In this document: positions 24,849 through 59,201 of the stretch, in pieces | Layout: each line of letters opens with the position of its first letter | How positions within the stretch are numbered: the first letter of the stretch is position 1 | Source of the DNA: Haliotis rufescens | Taxonomy: Eukaryota | Direction: 5' to 3' | Assembly (NCBI RefSeq): GCF_023055435.1 | Contig: NW_025963824.1 | Span: 22,134,001 to 22,198,000, forward strand | Length of the DNA stretch: 64,000 nucleotides | Translations under genes and position numbers: made by a program | Notes under the pieces: model-generated | Database searches by the model: none | Told to the model about the DNA's origin: nothing | What the model saw: only the letters and a program-made list of their open reading frames with translations

Positions 24849-27800
24849 CTGCAAAACAAGACAGCAAAGATGTCAAGTAAGATTAGTTGCCAGCAACTGT
24901 AGGGATGAAGTATTCAAAACAAATAAGAAACAGAGATCCACTTGTTGCACAACAAGGGGTACTGTTGTCCTGAGGGCCGATCTCATACATTTGTTTGGGT
25001 GTGGGCTATTACCATTATTACTTGTGAGTGACCCCCATCTCAGTTGTCTCCCCATTGGTCACACTATGTTAACATCACTGATTAACTGTTGATGTCACAC
25101 AATGTTAACATCACTGAATGACTGATGATGTCACACAATGTGAATATCACTGAAAAATGTTTGTTTGATGTTTATCGCTGCACTCAGCAATATTCCAGCC
25201 ACATGATGGTGATCTGTAAATAATGGAGTCTGGAGCAGACAATCCAGTGATTGACATCATGAACATCTATCTATGCAATTGGGGTAAGATGATCAAGTCA
25301 GCAAGTCCAACCACCCTAATGGGTTGCTGATGATCAATTCTAACCTGGATTTTCACCGGTACACAGAATAACTGTTATCACACACACTGGAGATGTAACT
25401 GATATCACACATTGGAGATGTAACTGATATCACACACTGGAGATATATAGAATACTAAACGAGCTCCCATGTAATACCAATTTTATGAAACGAGTGAGTA
25501 GTTGTGGTATGTGACGAGCAAAAGTGAGTCAGATACCACAACTATTTACGAGTTTCATAAAATTGGTTTTACACGGGAGCGAGTTTAGTATTATATTTAT
25601 TACTTGCCATTTATAACGTTTTTAGAATTATACTGTTGAGTATGAATAGGCTGACACCTACACGATCCACGGCATAGTCAATTTGAGTTTAACAGAATAA
25701 TACTTCAAACACGTCAAAAGTTGAAATGTATGAATTAAATACCATACAACGGTCCTACTTTAGAATTCAGGCAGCCGTTCAACAAAATTATCGTAGGGCT
25801 AAGTAAGTGAGTGAGTGAGTGAGTATGGTTTTACGCCGCTTTTAGCAATATTCCAGCAATATCACGGCGGGGGACACCAGAAATGAGCTTCGTAGGGCTA
25901 AGACTATTGCAACTCACATACTTTAACTTAGACTAACGATTGTCGTTGTGCTACAATACGATCGCCTTGTGGAACAGGCCTTGTACCTCAAAGTTTACAA
26001 TCACATCACAATACTCGATGACGTAAATTGTGGAATTTTGTTGCACGATCCATCGGCGAAACAATGCCATGTGACATCAGCCTAGCAACAAGGTTGCTGG
26101 GGTCATAGAGTGTGCATAAGCTCCTCTCAGTGATATCAACTCCACACACAATGTTGTTGAATAAGCCAAGGGATGTTGAGAGCTTTCAATATTTGTTTGT
26201 GAAACGTGTTTCGAGAGTAAATAAGCACGCGTTTTGGTATTACACAATGTGTAATACAGCTGTATGTTTATTAAACTGGTGATCTCTTCAAGGGCAAGTA
26301 ATAAATAACTGATATCACACACTGGAGAAATAATTGATATCACAAACTGGAGATATAACTGATATCACACACTGGAGATGTAACTGATATCACATGCTGG
26401 TGATACAACTGAATAACTGATGATGTCAAACAATGATCACATCACACAACTGCGACATTAATGAACATTTTGACATTGCCATACACATTTGACATGTTTG
26501 TTTCAATTGGAATCTTGGCATATTTTGACAATGACTAACTGGCCGGTGCTACTCACAGGCATCATAGTTGGTCTTCAACTTGTCTATGACCCGAAACCTG
26601 GGGTCAGGGAACTCAAAGGTTAGACCAAACCGAAGTAGGGTGTTGTTCGCCAGGATCAGCTTCAACAGGTTCATCTCCACCTGGTTGCCAAGCAGCTCAG
26701 GTTTCTGGGGAAAAAAGGAGTAGATTCAAGAAAGGATCCTGATATTTAAGGTATGCTGCTCTTTAGTGTTCCTTTGTGAGATGTGTAATGACTGTCCACA
26801 CCCACATCACCTACTGTCTCCACCCTCATCACCTACAGTCCCCAGCCCCATCACTTACTGTCCCCTCCCCTCATCTCCACTCACCTGGTTGGCGACTCTC
26901 AACTCTGTGACGACCTGGTTGGTGTTGATTGCCCGCATCAGCCCCACCAAACACTCCCCGCTGATGTAGTTGGATTCCACATTCACTGTCCGCAGTGTTT
27001 TGTTCTCGGACAGTGCTTCTGCTAATTTCTGGGAACAAAATTTCAGAAATTTATCAATTTCAACAATTACAACAATTCCAGGTTAAGAGATAAGGGCTGG
27101 AAGAACACTGACATTACTTGAGAAAAAAGCACTGTGTCATTGGTCTTCCCCTTCAGTAGCATTAGGGGATGAATGGGGAACTGGTTACAATTCATCATAA
27201 ACCTTCAGAGACAACAACACAGCTACCATTACTCACGTACCTTCAGAGAGACAATAACTCGGCTACCATTACTCATGTACCTTCAGAGACAATAACCCGG
27301 CTACCATTAATCATGTACCTTCACAGAGACAATAACTCGGCTACCATTACTCATGTACCTTCAGAGACAATAACCCGGCTACCATTACTCATGTACCTTC
27401 AGAGACAATAACCCGGCTACCATTAATCATGTACCTTCACCGAGACAATAACTCGGCTACCATTAATCATGTACCTTCAGAGACAATAACCCTGATACCA
27501 TTACTCATGTACCTTCACAGAGACAATAACCCTGATACCATTAATCATGTACCTTCACAGAGACAATAACTCGGCTACCATTACTCATGTACCTTCAGAG
27601 ACAATAACCCGGCTACCATTAATCATGTACCTTCACCGAGACAATAACTCGGCTACCATTAATCATGTACCATCAGAGAAAATAACCTGGCTACCATTAA
27701 TCATGTACCTTCAGAGACAATAACCTGGCTACCATTAATCATGTACCATCAGAGACAATAACCTGGCTACCATTAATCATGTACCTTCAGAGACAATAAC

Positions 27801-30800
27801 CCTGATACCATTACTCATGTACCATCAGATACAATAACCCAGCTACCATTAATCATGTACCTTCAGAGAAAATAACCCTAATACCATTAATCATGTACCA
27901 TCAGAGACAATAACCCTGATACCATTACTCATGTACCTTCAGAGACAATAACCCGGCTACCATTATTCATGTACCTTCAGAGACAATAACCCTGATACCA
28001 TTAATCATGTACCTTCACAGAGACAATAACCCTGATACCATTAATCATGTACCTTCAGAGACAATAACCCTGATACCATTAATCATGTACCTTCACAGAG
28101 ACAATAACCCGGCTACCATTATTCATGTACCTTCAGAGACAATAACCCTGATACCATTAATCATGTACCTTCAGAGACAATAACCCTGATACCATTAATC
28201 ATGTACCTTCAGAGACAATAACTCGGCTACCATTACTCATGTACCTTCAGAGACAATAACCCGGCTACCATTAATCATGTACCTTCAGAGACAATAACCC
28301 TGATACCATTACTCATGTACCTTCAGAGACAATAACTCGGCTACCATTAATCATGTACCTTCAGAGACAATAACCCTGATACCATTAATCATGTACCATC
28401 AGAGACAATAACCCGGCTACCATTACTCATGTACCTTCAGAGACAATAACCCTGATACAATTAATCATGTACCTTCAGAGACAATAACCCGGCTACCATT
28501 ACTCATGTACCGTCAGAGACAATAACTCGGCTACCATTAATCATGTACCATCAGAGACAATAACTCGGCTACCATTAATCATGTACCGTCAGAGACAATA
28601 ACTCGGCTACCATTAATCATGTACATTCAGAGACAATAACTCGGCTACCATTAATCATGTACATTCAGAGACAATAACTCGGCTACCATTAATCATGTAC
28701 CGTCAGAGACAATAACCCGGCTACCATTAATCATGTACCTTCACCGAGACAATAACTCGGCTACCATTAATCATGTACCATCAGAGAAAATAACCTGGCT
28801 ACCATTAATCATGTACCTTCAGAGACAATAACCTGGCTACCATTAATCATGTACCATCAGAGACAATAACCTGGCTACCATTAATCATGTACCTTCAGAG
28901 ACAATAACCCTGATACCATTACTCATGTACCATCAGATACAATAACCCAGCTACCATTAATCATGTACCTTCAGAGAAAATAACCCTAATACCATTAATC
29001 ATGTACCATCAGAGACAATAACCCTGATACCATTACTCATGTACCTTCAGAGACAATAACCCGGCTACCATTATTCATGTACCTTCAGAGACAATAACCC
29101 TGATACCATTAATCATGTACCTTCACAGAGACAATAACCCTGATACCATTAATCATGTACCTTCAGAGACAATAACCCTGATACCATTAATCATGTACCT
29201 TCACAGAGACAATAACCCGGCTACCATTATTCATGTACCTTCAGAGACAATAACCCTGATACCATTAATCATGTACCTTCAGAGACAATAACTCGGCTAC
29301 CATTACTCATGTACCTTCAGAGACAATAACCCGGCTACCATTAATCATGTACCTTCAGAGACAATAACCCTGATACCATTACTCATGTACCTTCAGAGAC
29401 AATAACTCGGCTACCATTAATCATGTACCTTCAGAGACAATAACCCTGATACCATTAATCATGTACCATCAGAGACAATAACCCGGCTACCATTACTCAT
29501 GTACCTTCAGAGACAATAACCCTGATACAATTAATCATGTACCTTCAGAGACAATAACCCTGCTACCATTAATCATGTACCGTCAGAGACAATAACTCGG
29601 CTACCATTAATCATGTACCTTCACAGAGACAATAACTCGGCTACCATTAATCATGTACCATCAGAGACAATAACTCGGCTACCATTACTCATGTACCGTC
29701 AGAGACAATAACTCGGCTACCATTAATCATGTACCGTCAGAGACAATAACCCGGCTACCATTAATCATGTACCGTCAGAGACAATAACTCGGCTACCATT
29801 AATCATGTACCGTCAGAGACAATAACTCGGCTACCATTAATCATGTACCGTCAGAGACAATAACTCGGCTACCATTAATCATGTACCGTCAGAGACAATA
29901 ACTCGGCTACCATTAATCATGTACCGTCAGAGACAATAACTCGGCTACTATTTGAACCTGTGGTGAGGGGGGTATACCTTGGCTACTTTGTCGGTGGCTG
30001 CCACACCTGCCATCTCGAAGATCTTCAGTGTATTGTTTGTTTTCAGGGCCTCGCATACATTAAGTAACTGCTCGATGGAGAGATTCTGGAACAAAGTTAC
30101 ACACGCGACTATTGATTTGTTTCAGTTTCAACACTCCTGGCTCTCCATGAACATCCTAATCAAACCCTCAAAACACGTATACAATAGTTGTTATAACAGC
30201 CACACAAAGTCTTCATGACACTTCTTAAATAGTTCTTAAGACTATTTTATCATAGTTCTTAAAATGATTGTGTCATTATTTCCTTTAAGCTAATAGTAAA
30301 CAGTTCCAAAAAACAGAGCAGACTAATTCACAGGTAGGGCCACACAAACCAGTTTTGTATAATACACACTGAACATGGACTGTCCAGCTGATCTCACCTT
30401 GATATTATTGAGGTTAAGGTGTATAAGCTTGGCATCATTGCTCTTCAGCTGCTCTATGCTCTTCTCAATGTCGGTGTCATTCAAGGGCTCGTCCGGGACG
30501 GCCTTGAACTGCTGGGCTCGAGCATGACCTGCATCCAATGCACTTGTATTAAACACGGACTGAGAAACAATGACCAGAACAACCGGGGAGCATAGTCTTG
30601 CACAGGAAGACCCCCACTCACACAGACTGTCCTCCAAACAGAGAGATTTGAAACAAAACTAAGAGACATTACCATTTTTATTCATGTGGACTTGACTTTG
30701 CTCCTAAATTATGGTTCCATTGAAAGAGCAACCAAGAGCAAGAGTCCAGTGAAGACAATAGCAGTCTCTGAGACCTGTTAAAACTTTAATCTAGTCCTTT

Positions 30801-33800
30801 TGCTTCAATATTAGCTAATGTGATAAAGTGTGTATGGCTTAATTAGGAGAAAAACTTACTCGGTTTCTAAATTTGATGTAGTCCCAGTGTCGGGGGTCAA
30901 AAGGATAATGGATACCTCTGTTTAACCAATCAGAATTACGGATTCTTCAATATCATAGTAGAATGCTGGTTAATGTGTAACTATATGACGGCAGCCTGTT
31001 CATAATCAATATTTACCAGACAAACCAGTGACTGATACTATGAACAAACATTTCCCCATTGCCGGGTACAATGACATGCAATGAACCAAAGCAGTGAGTC
31101 AACTGCTTCATTGAACTGCTTGTACAAGCACAGGTTGGTAGGGATTCTGCCGTATGATGAGTCTATGTGAAGCGATTGAGTGTACGAGGGTAACCTACCT
31201 GTGAAGCCGCCCTCACTGATCTTTTCGTCCTGCAAGGAGGCGTAGTACTGAGTCTGGGTCAGCATACTGTGGAAGCCCAGAACAGCTGCAACACATGGAG
31301 TACACATGTAGGAAACGCAATAACTCTGGACACTGAAACATATTGATCTGTAGAGCAGTGTGTCGACACAAACACAACACACGGAGACGTAGGAAGGGAG
31401 GTAACTCTGCACACTGAAACATACTGATCTGTAGAGCAGTGTGTCGACACAAACACAACACACGGAGACATAGGAAGGGAGGTAACTCTGGACACTGATA
31501 CATATTGATCTGTAGTGCATTGCGTCGACAAAACACACTGAGACATAGGAAGGGAGGTAACTCTGGACACTGATACATATTGATCTGTAGTGCATTGCGT
31601 CGACAAGACACACGGAGACATAGGAAGGGAGGTAACTCTGGACACTGATACATATTGATCTGTAGTGCATTGCGTCGACAAAACACACGGAGACATAGGA
31701 AGGGAGGTAACTCTGGACACTGATACATATTGATCTGTAGTGCATTGTGTCGACATAGGAAGGGAGGTAACTCTGGACACTAATACATATTGATCTGTAG
31801 TGCAGTGTGTCCACAGAAAGAATACATGGAGATCTAGGAAGGGAGGTAACTCTGGACACTGATACATACTGATCTGTAGTGCAGTGTGTCCACAGAAAGA
31901 ATACATGGAGGTCTAAGAAGGGAGGTAACTCTGGACACTGATACATACTGATCTGTAGAGCAGTGTGTCGACCCACAAACACAACACATGGATATATAGG
32001 AAGGAAGGTAACTCAGTTTGTTTGTTTGTTTAACGCTGCACTCAAAAATATTTCAGCTATATGACAGCGGTCTGTTAATAATAAAGTCTGGACCAGCCAA
32101 ACCTGTGATTGAGCATCGATCTACGCAATTGTGATCAATGACATGCATCAACCAAGTCAGCGAGCCTGACCACTAGATCCCGGTAGTCGCCTCTTACGAC
32201 AAGCATAGTCGCCTTTTATGGCAAGTATGGGTTGCTGAAGACCTATTCTACTCCGGGATCTTCACGGGTCGAAGGTAACTCTATACACTGATACATACTG
32301 ATCTGTAGTGCAGTGTGTCGACAACACATGGACACCTACCGTAAGGGAGATAACTTCTACTACAAGGCAAGTGCCACATGCAAAATATGGTGGGCGTGTA
32401 CTACGTGGTTAAGTATGGTTGGAGCGTACCACATAGTAGTTATGGCGAGAGTGAACTCCGTGGGAGCGTAGGGTGGGAGCGTACCACATGGAAGTTATGG
32501 TGAGAGTGTACTACGTGGGTAAGTATGGTGAGAGTGTACTACGTGGCTAAGTATGGTGGGAGCATACCACGTGGAAGGTATGGTGAGAGTGTTCTACGTG
32601 GGTAAGTATGGTGAGAGTGTACTATGTGGGTAAGTATGGTGAGAGTGTACCACATGGAAGGTATGGTGAGAGTGTACTACGTGGGTAAGTATGGTGAGAG
32701 TGTACTAAGTGGGTAAGTATGGCGAGAGTGTACTATGTGGGTAAGTATGGCGAGAGTGTACTACGTGAGTAAGTATGGCGAGAGTGTACTACGTGGGTAA
32801 GTATGGCGAGACGGTACTACGTGGGTAAGTATGGCAAGAGTGTACTATGTGGGTAATTATGACGAGAGTGTTCTACGTGGGTAAGTATGGTGAGAGTGTA
32901 CTACGTGGGTAAGTATGGTGGGAGCGTACCACGTGGAAGGTATGGTGAGAGTGTACTACGTGGGTAAGTATGGCGAGAGTGTACTACGTGGGTAATTATG
33001 ACGAGAGTGTACTACGTGGGTAATTATGACGAGAGTGTTCTACGTGGGTAAGTATGGTGAGAGTGTACTAAGTGGGTAAGTATGGCGAGAGTGTACTAAG
33101 TGGGTAAGTATGGTGAGAGTGTACTACGTGGGTAAGTATGGCGAGAGTGTACTACGTGGGTAATTATGACGAGAGTGTACTATGTGGGGAAGTATGGTGA
33201 GAGTGTACTATGTGGGTAAGTATGGTGAGAGTGTACCACATGGAAGGTATGGTGAGAGTGTACGACGTGGAAGGTATGGTGAGAGTGTACTACGTGGGTA
33301 AGTATGGTGGGAGCATACCACGTGGAAGTTATGGTCAGAGTGTAGTAGGGGGGTAAGTATGGTGAGAGTGTATCACATGGAAGGTATGGTGAGAGTGTTC
33401 TACGTGGGTAAGTATGGTGAGAGTGTACTACGTGGGTAAGTATGGTGAGAGTGTACCACCTGGAAGGTATGGTGAGAGTGTACTAAGTGGGTAAGTATGG
33501 CGAGAGTGTACTACGTGGGTAAGTATGGCGAGAGTGTACTACGTGGGTAAGTATGGCAAGAGTGTACTATGTGGGTAAGTATGGTGAGAGTGTACTACGT
33601 GGGTAAGTATGGCGAGAGTGTACTACGTGGGTAAGTATGGCGAGAGTGTACTATGTGGGTAAGTATGGCGAGACGGTACTTCGTGGGTAAGTATGGCAAG
33701 AGTGTACTATGTGGGTAAGTATGGTGAGAGTGTACTACGTGGGTAAGTATGGTGAGACGGTACTACGTGGGTAAGTATGGTGAGAGTGTTCTACGTGGGT

Positions 33801-36800
33801 AAGTATGGTGAAAGTGAACTACGTGGGTAAGTATGGCGAGAGTGTACTACGTGGGTAAGTATGGTGAAAGTGTACTATGTGGGTAAGTATGGTGAGAGTG
33901 TACCACCTGGAAGGTATGGTGAGAGTGTACTACGTGGGTAAGTATGGCGAGAGTGTACTACGTGGGTAAGTATGGCGAGAGTGTACTACGTGGGTAAGTA
34001 TGGCGAGACGGTACTACGTGGGTAAGTATGGCAAGAGTGTACTATGTGGGTAAGTATGGTGAGAATGTACAAAGTGGGTAAGTATGGCGAGACGGTACTA
34101 CGTGGGTAAGTATGGCGAGAGTGTACTTCCAGGGTAAGTATGGAGAGAGTGTACAAAGTGGGTAAGTATGGTGATAGTGTACTATGTGGGTAAGTATGGT
34201 GGGAGTGTACCACATGGAAGGTATGGTGAGTGAGTGAGTGAGTATGGTTTTACGCCGCTTTTAGCAATATTCCAGCAATATCACGGCGGGGGACACCAGA
34301 AATGGGCTTCACACATTGTACCCATGTCGGGAATCGAACCCGAGTCTTCGGCGTGACGAGCGAACGCTTTAATCACTAGGCTACCCGACAGCCCTGAAGG
34401 TATGGTGAGAGTGTACTACGTGGGTAAGTACGGTGAGAGTGTACTACGTGGGTAAGTATGGTGGGAGTGTACCACATGGAAGGTATGGTGAGAGTGTACA
34501 ACATGGGTAAGTATGGTGAGAGTGTACTACGTGGGTAAGTATGGCGAGAGTGTACTATGTGGGTAAGTATGGTGAGACGGTACTACGTGGGTAAGTATGG
34601 TGAGAGTGTTCTACGTGGGTAAGTATGGTGAAAGTGAACTACGTGGGTAAGTATGGCGAGAGTGTACTACGTGGGTAAGTATGGTGAAAGTGTACTATGT
34701 GGGTAAGTATGGTGAGAGTGTACCACCTGGAAGGTATGGTGAGAGTGTACTACGTGGGTAAGTATGGCGAGAGTGTACTACGTGGGTAAGTATGGCGAGA
34801 GTGTACTACGTGGGTAAGTATGGCGAGACGGTACTACGTGGGTAAGTATGGCAAGAGTGTACTATGTGGGTAAGTATGGTGAGAATGTACAAAGTGGGTA
34901 AGTATGGCGAGACGGTACTACGTGGGTAAGTATGGCGAGAGTGTACTTCCAGGGTAAGTATGGAGAGAGTGTACAAAGTGGGTAAGTATGGTGATAGTGT
35001 ACTATGTGGGTAAGTATGGTGGGAGTGTACCACATGGAAGGTATGGTGAGTGAGTGAGTGAGTATGGTTTTACGCCGCTTTTAGCAATATTCCAGCAATA
35101 TCACGGCGGGGGACACCAGAAATGGGCTTCACACATTGTACCCATGTCGGGAATCGAACCCGAGTCTTCGGCGTGACGAGCGAACGCTTTAATCACTAGG
35201 CTACCCGACAGCCCTGAAGGTATGGTGAGAGTGTACTACGTGGGTAAGTACGGTGAGAGTGTACTACGTGGGTAAGTATGGTGGGAGTGTACCACATGGA
35301 AGGTATGGTGAGAGTGTACAACATGGGTAAGTATGGTGAGAGTGTACTACGTGGGTAAGTATGGTGGGAGTGTACCACATGGACGGTATTGTGAGAGTGT
35401 ACTACGTGGGTAAGTATGGTGAGAGTGTACTACATGGGTAAGTATGGTGAGAGTGTACTACGTGGGTAAGTATGGTGGGAGTGTACCACATGGAAGGTAT
35501 TGTGAGAGTGTACTACGTGGGTAAGTATGGTGAGAGTGTACCACATGGAAGGTATGGTGAGAGTGTACTACGTGGGTAAGTATGGTGAGAGTGTACTACG
35601 TGGGTAAGTATGGTAAGAGTGTACTACGTGGGTAAGTATGGTGAGAGTGTACCACATGGAAGGTATGGTGAGAGTGTACTACGTGGGTAAGTATGGTGAG
35701 AGTGTACTACGTGGGTAAGTATGGTAAGAGTGTACTACGTGGGTAAGTATGGTGAGAGTGTACCACATGGAAGGTATGGTGAGAGTGTACTACGTGGGTA
35801 AGTATGGTGGGAGTGTACCACATGGAAGGTATGGTAAGAGTGTACTACGTGGGTAAGTATTGTGGGAGTGTACCACATGGAAGGTATTGTTAGAGTGTAC
35901 TACGTGGGTAAGTATGGTGGGAGTGTACTACGTGGGTAAGTATTGTGGGAGTGTACCACATGGAAGGTATGGTGAGAGTGTACTACGTGGGTAAGTATGG
36001 TGGGAGTGTATCACATGGAAGGTATGGTGAGAGTGTACTACGTGGGTAAGTATGGTGAGAGTGTATCACATGGAAGGTATGGTGAGAGTGTACCACATGG
36101 AAGGTATGGTGAGAGTGTTCTACGTGGGTAAGTATGGTGAGAGTGTACTACGTGGGTAAGTATGGTGAGAGTGTATCACATGGAAGGTATGGTGAGAGTG
36201 TACCACATGGAAGGTATGGTGAGAATGTACTACGTGGGTAAGTATGGGGAGAGTGTACCACATGGAAGGTATGGTGAGAGTGTACCACATGGAAGGTATG
36301 GTGAGAATGTACTACGTGGGTAAGTATGGGGAGAGTGTACCACATGGAAGGTATGGTGAGAGTGTACTACGTGGGTAAGTATGGTGAGAGTGTACTACGT
36401 GGGTAAGTATGGGGAGAGTGTACCACATGGAAGGTATGGTGAGAGTGTACTACGTGGGTAAGTATGGTGGGAGTGTATCACATGGAAGGTATTGTGAGAG
36501 TGTACTACGTGGGTAAGTATGGTGAGAGTGTACTACGTGGGTAAGTATGGTGAGAGTGTATCACATGGAAGGTATGGTGAGAGTGTACCACATGGAAGGT
36601 ATGGTGAGAGTGTACCACATGGAAGGTATGGTGAGAGTGTACCACATGGAAGGTATGGGGAGAGTGTACCACATGGAAGGTATGGTGAGAGTGTACCACA
36701 TGGAAGGTATGGTGAGAGTGTACCACATGGAAGGTATGGGGAGAGTGTACCACATGGAAGGTATGGTGAGAATGTACTACGTGGGTAAGTATGGTGAGAG

Positions 36801-39800
36801 TGTACTACGTGGGTAAGTATGGTGAGAGTGTACTACGTGGGTAAGTATGGGGAGAGTGTACCACATGGAAGGTATGGTGAGAGTGTACTACGTGGGTAAG
36901 TATGGTGGGAGTGTATCACATGGAAGGTATGGTGAGAGTGTACTACGTGGGTAAGTATGGTGAGAGTGTACTACGTGGGTAAGTATGGTGAGAGTGTATC
37001 ACATGGAAGGTATGGTGAGAGTGTACCACATGGAAGGTATGGTGAGAGTGTACCACATGGAAGGTATGGTGAGAGTGTACCACATGGAAGGTATGGTGAG
37101 AGTGTACCACATGGAAGGTATGGTGAGAGTGTACCACATGGAAGGTATGGTGAGAGTGTACCACATGGAAGGTATGGTGAGAGTGTTCTACGTGGGTAAG
37201 TATGGTGAGAGTGTATCACATGGAAGGTATGGTGAGAGTGTACCACATGGAAGGTATGGTGAGAGTGTACTATGTGGGTTAGTATGGTGAGAGTGTATCA
37301 CATGGAAGGTATGGTGAGAGTGTACCACATGGAAGGTATGGTGAGAGTGTACTATGTGGGTTAGTATGGTGAGAGTGTACTACGTGGGTAAGTATGGTGA
37401 GAGTGTATCACATGGAAGGTATGGTGAGAGTGTACCACATGGAAGGTATGGTGAGAGTGTACTATGTGGGTTAGTATGGTGAGAGTGTACTACGTGGGTA
37501 AGTATGGTGAGAGTGTATCACATGGAAGGTATGGTGAGAGTGTACCACATGGAAGGTATGGTGAGAGTGTACCACATGGAAGGTATGGTGAGAGTGTACC
37601 ACATGGAAGGTATGGGGAGAGTGTTCTACGTGGGTAAGTATGGTGAGAGTGTACCACATGGAAGGTATGGTGAGAGTGTACTACGTGGGTAAGTATGGTG
37701 AGAGTGTACCACATGGAAGGAATGGTGAGAGTGTACTACATGGGTAAGTATGGCGAGAGTGTACTACGTGGGTAAGTATGGTGAGAGTGTTCTACGTGGG
37801 TAAGTATGGTGAGAGTGTACTACGTGGGTAAGTATGATGGGAGTGTATCACATGGAAGGTATGGTGAGAGTGTACTACATGGGTAAGTATGGCGAGAGTG
37901 TTCTACGTGGGTATGTATGGTGAGAGTGTTCTACGTGGGTAAGTATGATGGGAGTGTATCACATGGAAGGTATGGTGAGAATGTACTACGTGGGTAAGTA
38001 AGGTGGGAGCGTACGGTGCGAGTGTATGTGGGAGCATGGGGTTGGCATGTACAGTGTGAGTGTACTCACCGGCCAGGTCTACCAACTCCTCCTCTGAAGC
38101 CTCCGTAAGGATGTCGTCCCACTCTGTGTCAATGTTGAAGTCACCATCATCGTTGCTCTTCTTTGGCTTCTCCTCCTCCTTCTTCTTGAACACTTTGCCT
38201 GTACAACAACCAGACACAGGGCAAAGTCAGCATTCATTGAAAGCAACAAATAGAAACCAACAAACATAGATAACTTCTTTGTCCTCCAAAATCTGACGCC
38301 ACCATCCGCAGCATTACTGAACACCAACGTAATGGAGACAAAACGTCATGTCCTTGATTCATTGATCCTGAAAACTGTTACTACAGACAAAGAAGGTTTC
38401 ATTGTTAAATCTCTAAGTCGGTGGAGATCTAACCTCTTTCAACAAAGTATGCATGACTTCTTACAAGTTAAATGACTGGCCTGTCTTTTAAGCCTAGTTT
38501 GCAATACATTGAAATGAGTGTTTTTGAAACCAAACTTAACCCCTGGCAGGGAATGGTAGCAGGTTACCTCGGGTCTCCTTCACATAGCTCTTGTTCTGCT
38601 CCCAGTCCTTCTCCTGCTTGGCCTGGTTCTCGATGAACTTGAGCAGCTTCTGGCGGTTGAAGGGTCCAGTCGGCTCCTTCGACGTCTGGTCCCTGCATCT
38701 CAGGCCAGGGGGCAGCAGGGAGTTCTGACAATAGAAGGTGATTGTAGTAGTGTCAGATGATGACAGAGGGTGATTGTAGTAGTGTCAGATGACAGAGGGT
38801 GATTGTAGTAGTGTCAGATGACAACAGATGATGATTGGAGTAGTGTCAGATGACGACAGAAGGTGATTGTAGTAGTGTCAGATGATGAAGGTGATTGTAG
38901 TAGTGTCAGATGATGACAGAGGGTGATTGTAGTAATGTCAGATGATGAGGGTGATTGTAGTAGTGTCAGATGATGACAGAGGGTGATTGTAGTAGTGTCA
39001 GATGATGAAGGTGATTGTAGTAGTGTCAGATGATGACAGAGGGTGATTGTAGTAATGTCAGATGATGACAGAGGGTGATTGTAGTAGTGTCAGATGACGA
39101 CAGAGGGTGATTGTAGTAGTGTCAGATGACGACAGAGGGTGATTGTAGTAATGTCAGATGATGAAAGAAGGTGATTGTAGTAATGTCAGATGATGACAGA
39201 GGGTGATTGTAGTAGTGTCAGATGACGACAGAGGGTGATTGTAGTAGTGTCAGATAATGACAGAAGGTGATTGTAGTAATGTCAGATGATGACAGAGGGT
39301 GATTGTAGTAGTGTCAGATGACGACAGAAGGTGATTGTAGTAATGTCAGATGATGACAGAGGGTGATTGTAGTAGTGTCAGATGATGACAGAAGATCATT
39401 GTAGTAGTGTCAGATGACGACAGAGGGTGATTGTAGTAGTGTCAGATGACGACAGAGGGTGATTGTAGTAGTGTCAGATGACGACAGAGGGTGATTGAAG
39501 TAGTGTCAGATGACGACAGAAGGTGATTGTAGTAGTGTCAGATGACAACAGAAGGGGATTGTAGTAGTGTCAGATGACGACAGAAGGTGATTGTAGTAAT
39601 GTCAGATGACAACAGAAGGGGATTGCAGTAGTGTCAGATGATGACAGAAGGGGATTGTAGTAGTGTCAGATGATAACAGAAGGTGATTGTAGTAATGTCA
39701 GATGATGACAGAGGGTGATTGTAGTAGTGTCAGATGATGACAGAAGGTGATTGTAGTAGTGTCAGATGATGACAGAAGGTGATTGTAGTAATGTCAGATG

Positions 39801-41264
39801 ATGACAGAGGGTGATTGTAGTAGTGTCAGATGATGACAGAAGGTGATTGTAGTAGTGTCAGATGATGACAGAAGGTGATTGTAGTAATGTCAGATGATGA
39901 CAGAAGGTGATTGTAGTAATGTCAGATGATGACAGAGGGTGATTGTAGTAGTGTCAGATGACGACAGAAGGGGATTGTAGTAGTGTCAGATGATGACAGA
40001 AGGGGATTGTAGTAGTGTCAGATGATTACAGAAGGTGATTGTAGTAGTGTCAGATGATGACAGAGGGTGATTGTAGCAGTGTCAGATGATTACAGAAGGT
40101 GATTGTAGTAGTGTCAGATGACGACAGAGGGTGATTGTAGTAGTGTCAGATGATGACAGAAGGTGATTGTAGTAATGTCAGATGATGACAGAGGGTGATT
40201 GTAGTAGTGTCAGATGATGACAGAGGGTGATTGTAGTAGTGTCAGATGATTACAGAAGGGGACTGTAGTAGTGTCAGATGATTACAGAAGGTGATTGTAG
40301 TAGTGTCAGATGATGACAGAGGGTGATTGTAGTAGTGTCAGATGATTACAGAAGGTGATTGTAGTAGTGTCAGATGACGACAGAGGGTCAATTCAGTAGA
40401 GTCATATGACGCTTGAGGTCATTGTAGTAGAGTCAGATGATGACAGGGTGATTGTAGTAATGTCAGATGAAGACAGAGAGTCATTGTAGTAGAGTCATAT
40501 GACGCTGGAGGTCATTGTAGTAGTGTCAGATGACGACGGAAGGTGATTGTAGTAGTGTCGGATGACAACAGAAGGGGATTGTAGTAGTGTCAGATGACGA
40601 CAGAAGGTGATTGTAGTAATGTCAGATGATGACAGAAGGTGATTGTAGTAGTGTCAGATGATGACAGAGGGTGATTGTAGTAGTGTCAGATGACGACAGA
40701 GGGTGATTGTAGTAGTGTCAGATGATGACAGAGGGTGATTGTAGTAGTGTCAGATGACGACAGAGGGTGATTGTAGTAGTGTCAGATGGCGACAGAGGGT
40801 GATTGTTGTTGTGTCAGATGACGACAGAAGGTCGATGAAGTAGTGTCAGAGGATGACAGAGGTGATTGTAGTAGTGTCATATGACGACGGAGGTCATTGT
40901 AGTAGTTGTGATAATTACCCTAGATCCATTCACTAAATTTGCTCGGCTTTGGGTTTCAATTTACATTACACTGAAAATAGCTTTTCATCCAAATTACACT
41001 TCTGGGCGAGAAAGTCTCTTTGAAAATCTTTTGAGGGGATGATATAGTGATGACACCTCTAAAGCGGAGGTACAATTGGGACATGGGACAAGACAAGTAC
41101 ATAGCCAGCCTTGGTGACAGGAACAAGACACTCACATCGGGGTCAAAGTCTCCGTTGAGTTCCTCCAACTCCTCGGTTGTGAGCTGAGTCAGGAGATCGT
41201 CGAGGTCCTCCAACTCGATGTCCGGGACTTCCTTGTCCTTGTCCTTGTGCAGAATAGCCGACAT
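24820..41264 (-). CDS. TMOD: Tropomodulin (actin pointed-end capping protein), spliced CDS of 9 exons, 353 aa
   Basis: Manual splicing of 41264-41136, 38724-38568, 38198-38070, 31285-31199, 30528-30398, 30085-29978, 27028-26885, 26704-26557 and 24848-24820 gives 1062 nt in frame with all introns GT..AG. The protein has tropomodulin motifs (LLTQLTTEELEEL..DPDNSLLPPGLRCRDQT..PTGPFNRQKLL; ASEEELVDLAAVLG; LRR domain LNLNNIK, NVESNYISG, ELRVANQ, LGNQVEM). Confidence 0.96.
25159..25360 (-). mobile_element. Family B, diverged copy in the last Tmod intron
   Basis: Match with many CpG>TpG changes. Confidence 0.8.
25445..26306. mobile_element. Foldback non-autonomous DNA element with nested MITE (~25768-25983) and SINE
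   Basis: ~65-bp-arm hairpin at 25445-25597; tttattacttgcc / ggcaagtaataaa inverted pair; interrupts a ~25-bp minisatellite. Confidence 0.65.
25804..25889 (-). mobile_element. SINE family A, 5'-truncated copy
   Basis: 3' half only; perfect 13-bp TSD tcgtagggctaag (25791-25803 / 25890-25902). Confidence 0.9.
26557..26704 (-). CDS. TMOD: Tropomodulin coding exon 8 (KPELLGNQVEM...TNYDA)
   Basis: Acceptor ttccccag, donor gtgagt; 148 nt, ends phase 1. Confidence 0.95.
26885..27028 (-). CDS. TMOD: Tropomodulin coding exon 7 (KLAEALSENK...ELRVANQ)
   Basis: Acceptor ttcccag, donor gtgagt; 144 nt; LRR. Confidence 0.96.
27199..29950. repeat. 38/40-bp minisatellite, ~70 copies, fills Tmod intron 6
   Basis: Unit cagagacaataactcggctaccattaatcatgtacctt. 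Confidence 0.97.
29978..30085 (-). CDS. TMOD: Tropomodulin coding exon 6 (NLSIEQLL...TDKVAK)
   Basis: Acceptor ttccag, donor gtatac; 108 nt; LRR. Confidence 0.94.
30398..30528 (-). CDS. TMOD: Tropomodulin coding exon 5 (GHARAQQFK...LNLNNIK)
   Basis: Acceptor atgcag, donor gtgaga; 131 nt, phase 1-0. Confidence 0.94.
31199..31285 (-). CDS. TMOD: Tropomodulin coding exon 4 (AVLGFHSMLTQTQYY...GGFT)
   Basis: Acceptor gttgcag, donor gtaggt; 87 nt, phase 1-1. Confidence 0.94.
31300..32345. repeat. ~75-bp (60-81) minisatellite, ~10 copies, Tmod intron 3
   Basis: Unit ggaagggaggtaactctggacactgatacatattgatctgtagtgcattgcgtcgacaaaacacacggagacata. Confidence 0.93.
32015..32270 (-). mobile_element. Family B copy inserted in the 75-bp array
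   Basis: Perfect 11-bp TSD gaaggtaactc (32004-14 / 32271-81). Confidence 0.9.
34231..34395 (-). mobile_element. SINE family A inside the 27/28-bp array
   Basis: Full length; TSD gaaggtatggtgag. Confidence 0.9.
35051..35215 (-). mobile_element. SINE family A, duplicate of the 34231 copy
   Basis: Identical sequence and flanks at +820 bp. Confidence 0.9.
38070..38198 (-). CDS. TMOD: Tropomodulin coding exon 3 (GKVFKKK...EEELVDLA)
   Basis: Acceptor gtacag, donor gtgagt; 129 nt, phase 1-1. Confidence 0.96.
38568..38724 (-). CDS. TMOD: Tropomodulin coding exon 2 (NSLLPPGLRCRDQT...YVKETR)
   Basis: Acceptor ttgtcag, donor gtaacc; 157 nt; not in the ORF track but translates to the conserved Tmod motif. 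Confidence 0.96.
38727..40905. repeat. 32-bp minisatellite, ~68 copies, fills Tmod intron 1
   Basis: Unit gatgatgacagagggtgattgtagtagtgtca. Confidence 0.97.
41136..41264 (-). CDS. TMOD: Tropomodulin coding exon 1 (MSAILHK...GDFDPD); exon begins at 41278
   Basis: Acceptor gttgcag at 41279-80, ATG at 41264, donor gtgagt at 41135; 129 nt, ends phase 0. Confidence 0.92.
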
Positions 41265-41432
41265 CGCAGAGGTCAGGTCTGCAACATACAACACATCATG
41301 TTATACATATTTATACATTGCTAATTCCACACAATACATGCCAATAGGAAATACAATTATGTAGAATAATGATGCCAATACAACTGTGGTTTGATTCTGA
41401 TCATTAGAATCATGGACCAACCTGTGTCTTAA

Positions 41433-43159: not shown

Positions 43160-43535
43160 GGCATGTTTAGAGAGGGTAGGAATGGAGTGTTTTCAGGGCA
43201 GGGCATGTTTAGAGAGGGTAGGATGAAGTGTTTTCAGGGCAGGGCATGTTTAGAGAGGGTAGGAATGGAGTGTTTTCAGGGCAGGGCATGTTTAGAGAGG
43301 GGAGGATGGAGTGTTTTCAGGGCAGGGCATGTTTAGAGAGGTTAGGAATGGAGTGTTTTCAGGGCAGGGCATGTTTAGAGAGGGTAGCGTGAAGTGTTTT
43401 CAGGGCAGGGCATGTTTAGAGAGGGTAGGAATTGAGTGTTTTCAGGGCAGGGCATGTTTAGAGAGGGTAGCGTGAAGTGTTTTCAGGGCAGGGCATGTTT
43501 AGAGAGGGTAGGAATGGAGTGTTTTAAGGGCAGGG
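43160..43535. repeat. 41/42-bp minisatellite, 9 copies
   Basis: Unit gggcatgtttagagagggtaggaatggagtgttttcagggca. Confidence 0.95.
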
Positions 43536-44908
43536 TACTAGTCGGGACGTTTAGGTGTGCCCACAAGAGGAACGTTTTTTTTAGGAAATTTTAAATTCTG
43601 TTGATTAATTGGTTACCCATGTTCATATTTTCACATGTTTTTGAACAGTCCATCACTGGCTTCACATAATAAAAGTTGTCACAAGGCATATATACATTTA
43701 TAAAAATGTGATTTTGTGCTTTTTAGCATGTTATTGTCAAAGCATTGAGAATGTATTTTAACCGTGTGATCATGTTTTTAAGCTTGCCAATAGGCACTTT
43801 TATAAGGAATTTTGAACCGTGAAGAGTGTTTCTACATTTCCTATGTTAAAGCAAATAGAGTTTGAGCGAGTAGTTTAATGCTGTAATTAGTGATATGAGC
43901 GAGTAGTTTAATGCTGTAATTAGTGATATGAATGATGAAACACAATCCTAGAAAACAGTGGACCAGCCCTAAAGAACATTCTATGATGACTAAGACAACC
44001 ATACTGACTGACAGTACCTGACAAGGTTCACTAAGTTCATCACGGAACACAAGTACCTGCTGCTGAAGACAGTACGAGGTAACTGCCTCTCACCATGTCA
44101 CTCACTCAAACATGTCACATAATGATGAGAGTATAAAAATTGTTGTGAACACTGTCGTCAAAATATTACATAAAACTCTCCACCCCTCTCTGTGCCAGTC
44201 TGCAGTAATCCAATCCCTAATACAATCTAAACGATTCCAAGGACAAATGGCAATACTGGCCATGATGATGAGACACAGGAAAATATCCAAACTTACCGGC
44301 CATTTTGAAAGTTTGCTTGTTTATCTGTGTTGATGTATAATTCTATAAGCCAGGGGAGAGGTAAATCCACCAGAGTAATGGAAACACGACAAGAGTTTGG
44401 TGCGCTACCTATGATGTAAAGAATAAGCCACACACTGCCGGTGCAGTTGGGCTGAGTATTGAGGCTCCCCACCCGTGGGGGAGCACAGCGTAACTTACAC
44501 AATTACATTCTAGGGTTACAAATCTATTTCCACTACCATAGACCCATGAAATAAAAGGTATCATGTTTTAATGTTTAACATGTGATAAAAACATAGATAT
44601 GAACATAAACCGTTGGGATGACCACTTTGACTGTAAGCATCATTAATACCATAGTTACTTGCAATTAACTCTCCATCTCATTTACTTTGAAAAAGCCTTA
44701 CAATTCTTAGATCAGATCAGGGGTTTTGACCAAAGAATCAAGAAAAATTCGTTCAAAGTGTTGACAGTATTTGTGTTTAAATATTTTAAGTACATGTACA
44801 CAAGTGTTGTGGTCCATTGACATGAATAAGCACTGGGCATGAGTTGCATCCACATTGTCTATTATTCAAACAAAGTGAAAAAAACACCTGATTTTCTCAT
44901 AGGACTAC

Positions 44909-58949: not shown

Positions 58950-59201
58950 CAACAGCCAGTGTGACTACTTCATCTGTCTATATCTCACCTGCCCTGCTAC
59001 AACTGAACACCCAACAGCCAGTGTGACTACTTCATCTGTCTATATCTCACCTGCCCTGCTACAACTGAACACCCAACAGCCAGTGTGACTACTTCATCTG
59101 TCTATATCTCACCTGCCCTGCTACAACTGAACACCCAACAGCCAGTGTGACTACTTCATCTGTCTATATCTCACCTGCCCTGCTACAACTGAACACCCAA
59201 C
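58950..59201. repeat. 62-bp tandem repeat, 4 identical copies
   Basis: Unit caacagccagtgtgactacttcatctgtctatatctcacctgccctgctacaactgaacacc. Confidence 0.95.

Follow-up and report, generated by a model that had tools for sequence, protein, structure and literature searches.

A 32-bp minisatellite adjoining the acceptor of a tropomodulin intron in the abalone Haliotis rufescens, and tandem copies of splice junctions in the same genome

A tropomodulin intron of Haliotis rufescens carries, directly upstream of its acceptor, a 32-bp minisatellite which probably arose when the final 32 bases of the existing intron were amplified in tandem, up to one base before the acceptor G. The RNA is spliced at the normal acceptor, likely via the branch point of the last copy. 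Rather than a special splicing device, the array is probably a copying error without harmful effect, one of many of its type in this genome. The absence of AG dinucleotides from much of its length is inherited, not required, and the use of distant branch points would be unneeded. All coordinates refer to the analysed window, a stretch of 64,000 nt (contig NW_025963824.1, positions 22,134,001 to 22,198,000), and all features described lie on its minus strand.

Structure and origin of the array

The array-bearing intron (41135-38725, 2,411 nt) separates exon 2 (41136-41278, 143 nt), with its donor GT at 41135 and its end joined to 38724 in RNA contigs, from exon 3 (38568-38724, 157 nt). The Pfam profile PF03250 runs gap-free across the two exons, positions 3-38 falling in exon 2 and 39-90 in exon 3. 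A first-pass annotation, made from the sequence alone, had numbered this intron 1. Since the exon upstream has an acceptor of its own, and a first coding exon piece with an in-frame ATG is predicted at 44297-44303 (ATG GCC G followed by a donor, yielding a 360-aa open frame), it is likely coding intron 2.

The array was called by TRF at 38733-40906, with a period of 32 and 68.6 copies, and its units remain in phase as far as the acceptor A at 38726. The minisatellite, of about 68 copies, is therefore reported as 38726-40906; it occupies 90.5% of the intron and touches the acceptor, in agreement with the first-pass annotation. Each unit is composed of a branch motif, a weak pyrimidine tract and the CA of CAG. 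Units end in CAT, the last one alone in CAG, and the G of the acceptor AG (38725-38726) is the first base not common to the units. The unit thus corresponds to intron positions -33 to -2, taking the acceptor G as -1, and the array probably consists of copies of the former intron end.

The motif CTGAC is found 64 times in the array. Computed AG positions confirmed that no AG occurs on the sense strand from 40262 down to the acceptor, which leaves an AG-free zone of 1,536 nt (38727-40262) containing 48 of the CTGAC motifs. The zone falls entirely within the array, and is explained by an AG-less repeat placed directly upstream of the acceptor. Three AGs, the only ones on the sense strand of the array, lie in its distal part between 40263 and 40506 (at 40506, 40413 and 40264). 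Their acceptor scores are weak (-1.4, -5.5 and -2.6, versus 3.6 for the real site), and all are out of frame. The last CTGAC (38752-38756), the predicted working branch point, has its A at 38753, i.e. at -29, close to the 28 nt or so originally estimated and inside the CTRAY peak of the genome, which 388 array-free acceptors place at about -21 to -30. The unit does therefore hold the likely branch point of the intron, as had been proposed. The last 176 nt of the intron fold weakly (-20.5 kcal/mol, a value without shuffle control).

Other origins were evaluated and discarded. A genome search, which skips common words, detected no array of the same family elsewhere; the best outside matches reach 68-75%, with periods of 10, 29, 30 and 35, and argue against a dispersed minisatellite family or a mobile element, within the limits of such a search, which does not prove absence. 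An assembly artefact was rejected, since the array end is also present in an independent DNA run from another organism, where it touches the same acceptor. A coding repeat was rejected as well, the period of 32 being no multiple of 3 and the RNA contigs skipping the array.

Splicing of the intron and alternative explanations

Sequencing runs were classed as RNA-like by their spliced contigs, none being on record as RNA. In three of three such runs, from three organisms and three studies, the exon 2-exon 3 junction is normal and the acceptor at 38726-38725 is used; run contigs lose rare isoforms, so that minor use of the in-array AGs, or intron retention, could escape. The suggestion that expansion of the array is neutral for splicing appears to hold on this evidence. 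In the preferred reading two features, a branch motif and the absence of AG, would have passed to each copy, since both are usual in sequence close to an acceptor. Copies further upstream lack their own AG and have only short pyrimidine tracts; they would be mostly passive, so that exon-anchored recognition would pick the branch point at -29, and the number of copies would be free to drift.

It is improbable that selection has kept the array as a bank of branch points, with distant copies in use and the spliceosome searching as much as 1.5 kb of AG-free RNA for a single acceptor. The 48 CTGAC motifs of the zone and the confinement of the three in-array AGs to the distal third would suit such a bank, and human genes include AG-free zones of as much as 1,126 nt whose branch points are distant (PMC1431707). 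Against it, a candidate exists at the usual distance, a long pyrimidine tract is found in no copy, and an equally long zone is generated elsewhere by an array without branch motifs. The absence of AG also fits neutral expectation: shuffled versions of the G-poor unit are AG-free in 50% of cases, and the 48 proximal units have 0 AG-making substitutions where 1.4 are expected (P=0.25), no significant shortage in what is a low-power test.

The array might also tune splicing or intron retention by protein binding, with YCAY clusters as putative sites for Nova-type proteins, CU tracts for PTB-type proteins or many candidate SF1/U2 decoy sites, and with copy number as a dial, though this too seems quite unlikely. 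YCAY occurs about three times per unit, a density found in only 6 of 234 sampled arrays, and low-depth contigs with array sequence are present in two RNA-like runs; their depth (2-4 versus 130-160) is, however, what pre-mRNA or DNA carry-over would give. Tandem repeats near human 3' splice sites can alter splicing (PMC10078293), but in each of the three abalone runs the dominant contig contains exon 3, whose skipping would shift the frame.

There is very little to recommend the reverse order of events, in which the array came first and a T-to-G change in its terminal unit created the CAG of the acceptor. The unit ends do differ from an acceptor by a single base, and the sites hypothetically obtained in this way have a median score of 1.65 and a maximum of 3.9, against 3.6 for the real one. 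The uninterrupted Pfam profile across exons 2 and 3 tells against this order, and vertebrate TMOD genes probably have an intron at this position too. The unit, moreover, has no family elsewhere in the genome, by the search described above, and in dozens of other surveyed arrays an origin from adjacent exon or junction sequence is obvious.

Arrays at splice junctions in the genome

In order to place the tropomodulin array, 845 predicted introns of the genome were surveyed, 151 of an initial 996 having been dropped for weak flanking alignment. Arrays are present in 198 of them, about a quarter. The median AG-free zone is 30 nt, and 1 of the 845 introns has a zone above 1 kb. A length like that of the tropomodulin zone is thus rare, but it goes back to the repetition of one 32-nt event. 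The survey yielded a second long zone, of 1,620 nt, made by a 20-bp array without branch motifs.

Thirteen arrays abut an acceptor, ending within 15 nt of it. Nine contain AG and four are AG-free, compared to 5.6 expected from plain local duplication. Together with the 1,620-nt zone, and with 16 arrays in which the complete acceptor, AG included, is repeated in up to about 30 copies, these figures indicate that AG absence is inherited and not required; they lend no support to the idea of an array that builds its splice site or has to be AG-free. AG-free units also occur in mid-intron arrays (15/133 on the sense, 11/133 on the antisense strand), and abutting arrays are not enriched in branch motifs relative to mid-intron ones (YTRAY 4/13 versus 45/133, CTRAY 0/13 versus 26/133). 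In favour of the first-pass reading, abutting arrays are AG-free more often on the sense strand (4/13) than on the antisense strand (0/13; Fisher p=0.069 against mid-intron arrays), and acceptor-spanning arrays are about three times rarer than donor-spanning ones.

The combination of an AG-free unit with a branch motif in every copy does not recur among the 13 abutting arrays. Among the last 32 nt of 784 array-free acceptors, 315 (40%) are AG-free, 7.8% are AG-free with CTRAY and 21 are AG-free with CTGAC, and the combination is expected in only about 3-8% of 32-nt seeds.

Two further arrays of the window served as internal controls. The first, a 42-bp array at 43160-43535, lacks AG on the sense strand and lies about 1.9 kb away from the closest predicted acceptor. 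The second, an AG-rich array (31321-32014) with 4.6 AG per unit over 31321-31755, stops 36 nt short of the acceptor of exon 5. That acceptor is used, exons 4 and 5 being joined in all three RNA-like runs.

Tandem self-copies were found at 60 of 1,690 sampled splice sites, the largest sets comprising about 70 extra donors or 30 extra acceptors. They involve 44/845 donors versus 16/845 acceptors, or 40 versus 12 after merging paralogs. The one acceptor-repeating array tested is joined at its exon-proximal copy in an RNA contig (of four runs, two gave no contig and one only a paralog-like piece, blanks that carry no weight either way). The donor excess hints at stronger selection against spare acceptors, and the rarity of acceptor-spanning arrays makes some selection on upstream AG copies plausible. 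In the preferred reading the tropomodulin array is one case of a genome-wide habit, in which locally seeded arrays cluster at splice junctions. A further reading holds that abalone introns throughout the genome have been seeded with duplicates of their splice signals, which in the sample affect about 5% of donors and 2% of acceptors. The roughly threefold shortage of such arrays at acceptors would reflect selection against upstream AG copies, and arrays stopping one base before the G, like the tropomodulin one, would be favoured survivors; this reading is tentative and rather doubtful.

Known systems and significance

Repeat-made AG-free zones and donor-junction minisatellites are already known in human genes. 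The human exon IDB1079466.8106 has a repeat-caused AG-exclusion zone of 369 nt and an ordinary branch point (Gooding et al. 2006, PMC1431707). There as here, a repeat lacking AG precedes the 3' splice site and makes a long zone, with a candidate branch motif at ordinary distance; the abalone zone is longer (1,536 nt), and its unit is the intron end itself, with a branch motif per copy. Distant-branch-point exons, such as alpha-tropomyosin exon 3, PTB exon 11 and GABBR1 exon 23 (PMC1431707), likewise have a long AG-free stretch ending in the acceptor, and the abalone zone falls in the range of at least 100-150 nt that defines them. They are also defined by the lack of a candidate near the acceptor, whereas here CTGAC lies at -29 and in unit after unit. 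In such exons a single candidate and a pyrimidine tract sit towards the zone's 5' end, and regulation is frequent; in the abalone 48 equal motifs precede a frame-shifting exon included in three of three runs.

Minisatellites repeating a donor across the junction are described for human F7 IVS7, 6-16, CBS IVS13, lamin B2 and PDGF (Borensztajn et al. 2006, PMC1557585). As in these, tandem splice-site copies lie inside the abalone intron and the exon-proximal site is used. The tropomodulin array differs in lying at the acceptor, with a unit that stops at -2 and copies ending in CAT, and does not span the junction; since the unit excludes the acceptor G, amplification multiplied the branch motif but not the acceptor. 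Direct members of the F7 kind did turn up in the survey, as 44 donor-spanning and 16 acceptor-spanning arrays. The array also resembles human splicing-associated tandem repeats (PMC10078293) and internal tandem repeats at exon-intron boundaries (PMC2812944) in adjoining a 3' splice site with a possibly variable length. In NARS2, expansion of such a repeat moves the branch site away and lowers splicing (PMC10078293); each unit added in the abalone brings a branch motif of its own, so that the distance between the last branch motif and the acceptor stays fixed.

The mechanism at the tropomodulin locus is thus ordinary, and the locus carries a caution: kilobase AG-free zones, often taken as signs of distant branch points, can be produced by duplication of a single 32-mer. 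The broader outcome lies in the survey, with its asymmetry between donors and acceptors, for a layout which human genetics covers in a handful of genes. If the sampled rate holds genome-wide, the choice among identical splice sites would be measurable at thousands of loci with existing kinds of data. Should the reading of seeding followed by selection be true, these loci would form thousands of natural decoy ladders, and the abalone would offer a ready means of testing spliceosomal choice between identical sites.

Anatomy and splicing of the tropomodulin array intron

The tropomodulin intron occupied by the 32-bp array extends from 41135 to 38725 on the minus strand (2,411 nt), and is probably coding intron 2, since an ATG exon is predicted at 44303-44297 on the same strand. 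Ten predicted exons yield an open frame of 360 amino acids; three consecutive exons match the Pfam Tropomodulin profile, at 3-38 (below the curated cut-off), 39-90 and 92-131, and no match to this profile was found in the four other exon pieces scanned. An exon at another locus of this genome shares 99% identity with a Haliotis rufescens protein, which identifies the genome as that of an abalone.

The array was placed by TRF at 38733-40906 (minus strand, 68.6 copies) and makes up 90.5% of the intron, counting its in-phase extension to the A of the acceptor. Its unit corresponds to the stretch of the intron from -33 to -2. CAT stands at the end of the units and CAG at that of the final one, whose G is the first base beyond the repeat. 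When AG positions were computed, sense-strand AGs were found within the array at 40506, 40413 and 40264 only, with none between 40264 and the acceptor, which is preceded by an AG-free zone of 1,536 nt. CTGAC occurs 64 times in the array, 48 of them within this zone, and the A of the final copy lies at -29 from the acceptor. The description of the array in the first-pass annotation was accurate. Scored with an acceptor matrix trained on this genome, the AGs at 40506, 40413 and 40264 reach -1.4, -5.5 and -2.6, respectively, against 3.6 for the true site, and each is out of frame. In a genome search that skips common words, no array elsewhere belonged to the same family, the best look-alikes reaching 68-75% with other periods.

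Three out of three RNA-like runs, each from a different organism and study, have contigs in which exon 2 is joined by its end to 38724; since the contigs break at 38724 and then carry the exon 2 end, the tropomodulin acceptor is used. As contigs drop rare forms, this normal junction is that of the dominant contigs, and minor use of cryptic sites may occur beside it. An acceptor 36 nt past an AG-rich array, that of exon 5, is also spliced in the same three runs, to exon 4. The array is real and common to a second organism, because in a DNA run from the latter the sequence crosses the edge from exon 3 into the array.

Other introns of the gene are filled by large arrays, 28 bp x 203 (32386-38014) and 38 bp x 72 (27186-29952), beginning 56 and 26 nt downstream of their donors, respectively. 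Elsewhere in the window, a perfect 62-bp x 4 array (58950-59201, minus strand) has a unit including a donor-like CAG/GTGAGA; no host exon was identified for it. About three YCAY motifs per unit are found at 38726-40906 (minus strand), a density equalled by only 6 of the 234 arrays sampled below; putative Nova-type binding, suggested by this sequence feature, is possible.

Arrays at intron ends in dynein heavy chain and ABCC genes

The survey drew on 1.8 Mb of sequence surrounding 35 gene regions, 14 of dynein heavy chains and 21 of ABCC; its rates are approximate, because the sample consists of two large-gene families with related paralogs. Introns were placed by a profile-guided spliced aligner, whose matrices cover positions -16 to +1 only and take no account of AG-zone length or branch motifs. 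Of 996 predicted introns 845 were retained, 650 of which are strongly supported on both flanks, and 234 arrays were found in 198 of the 845. The AG-free zone has a median length of 30 nt and reaches at least 100 nt in 14 introns; one zone of 1,620 nt, in a dynein heavy chain gene (region L077, contig position G000:C68:4554202, minus strand), is due to a 20-bp array that lacks branch motifs and exceeds the zone of tropomodulin in length. In another dynein heavy chain gene (L085, G000:C79:4607375, minus strand) a 16-bp array is laid out like that of tropomodulin, with units ending in CAT and the last in CAG. About 20 myosin-head genes form a large tandem cluster at G000:C113:12.85-14.29 Mb.

As suggested in the first-pass annotation, arrays abutting an acceptor were tested for AG depletion and YTRAY enrichment on the sense strand. 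Thirteen arrays stop 0-15 nt upstream of an acceptor. Four of these are AG-free, against 5.6 expected from duplicating equal-sized pieces of 784 array-free acceptors, and nine contain AG; the four are AG-free on the sense strand, against none on the antisense, a mild bias, as expected from the seeds. For mid-intron arrays the corresponding AG-free counts are 15 of 133 (sense) and 11 of 133 (antisense; abutting versus mid-intron, Fisher p=0.069). No enrichment of branch motifs was found, YTRAY being present in 4/13 abutting versus 45/133 mid-intron arrays and CTRAY in 0/13 versus 26/133. The tropomodulin combination of AG-free unit and branch motif did not recur among the 13. By expectation, 7.8% of 32-nt intron ends are AG-free with CTRAY, and 21 of 784 are AG-free with CTGAC; shuffling the tropomodulin unit gives AG-free sequences in 50% of cases, and AG-free sequences with CTGAC in 1.9%. 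The 48 proximal units show 16 distinct substitutions; by expectation 1.4 would create an AG, and none does (P=0.25).

Arrays repeating the splice junction

Arrays spanning the splice junction itself are common in the 845 introns. Sixteen copy the acceptor together with its AG, so that absence of AG is not required; in several of them 17-26 copies score at least as high as the true acceptor. By score, this holds for 17 copies in a 44-bp x 30 array that copies a complete acceptor in a dynein heavy chain gene (L090, G000:C334:4425821, plus strand). One 94-bp x 10 acceptor array lies in an ABCC gene; there, the copy next to the exon is the one spliced to the preceding exon in an RNA contig (depth 6.9), which continues for 83 nt and so extends beyond the 49 exon bases that are duplicated. 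The informative run, one of four, comes from the second organism, the array from this genome. The annotated protein of this gene aligns without inserted repeat peptides, an observation on the annotation rather than independent RNA proof. On the donor side, a 64-bp x 73 array (ABCC gene L191, G000:C268:1432568, plus strand) carries 69 spare donors whose scores equal or exceed that of the true one; several further junction arrays are present in this gene.

Donor-spanning arrays outnumber acceptor-spanning ones by 44 to 16 in the 845 introns (35 gene regions, L036-L135 and L144-L223). Under uniform seeding, 10.7 to 19.5 arrays would be expected on each side; the donor count exceeds this (Poisson p ~1e-6 versus 19.5), the acceptor count does not (p=0.25). 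The asymmetry is found in both families (dynein 11 versus 4, ABCC 33 versus 12); merging paralogous arrays leaves 40 donors and 12 acceptors, of which 35 and 10 enter the exon by at least 8 nt (binomial p=2.5e-4). It may reflect polarity, in that spare donors fall downstream of the true site and lose, whereas spare acceptors fall upstream of it and can win. This part of the logic of the first-pass annotation survives. A mutational bias may also lie behind the asymmetry.

Origin of the tropomodulin array and significance

The tropomodulin array is best explained as a real, normally spliced, copied intron end. The simplest reading of its sequence is that the intron end would have been duplicated locally in tandem to give the array. 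The predicted branch point at -29 would be the one used, because this position falls within the CTRAY peak, about -21 to -30, of 388 array-free acceptors; the upstream copies would be passive, and copy number may drift neutrally. U2AF links branch choice to the adjacent pyrimidine tract and AG.

Gooding 2006 (PMC1431707) describes a repeat-made AG-free zone of 369 nt, whose branch candidate lies at -17, and AG-free zones as long as 1,126 nt. Donor-junction minisatellites of F7, 6-16, CBS, lamin B2 and PDGF are treated in Borensztajn 2006 (PMC1557585), and repeats influencing human splicing or gene structure in PMC10078293 and PMC2812944. In the literature searched, which includes few subscription journals, no publication was found that deals with acceptor minisatellites carrying a branch point or with how frequent junction arrays are in abalone. 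The main value of this work lies in the survey result, rather than in the tropomodulin locus.
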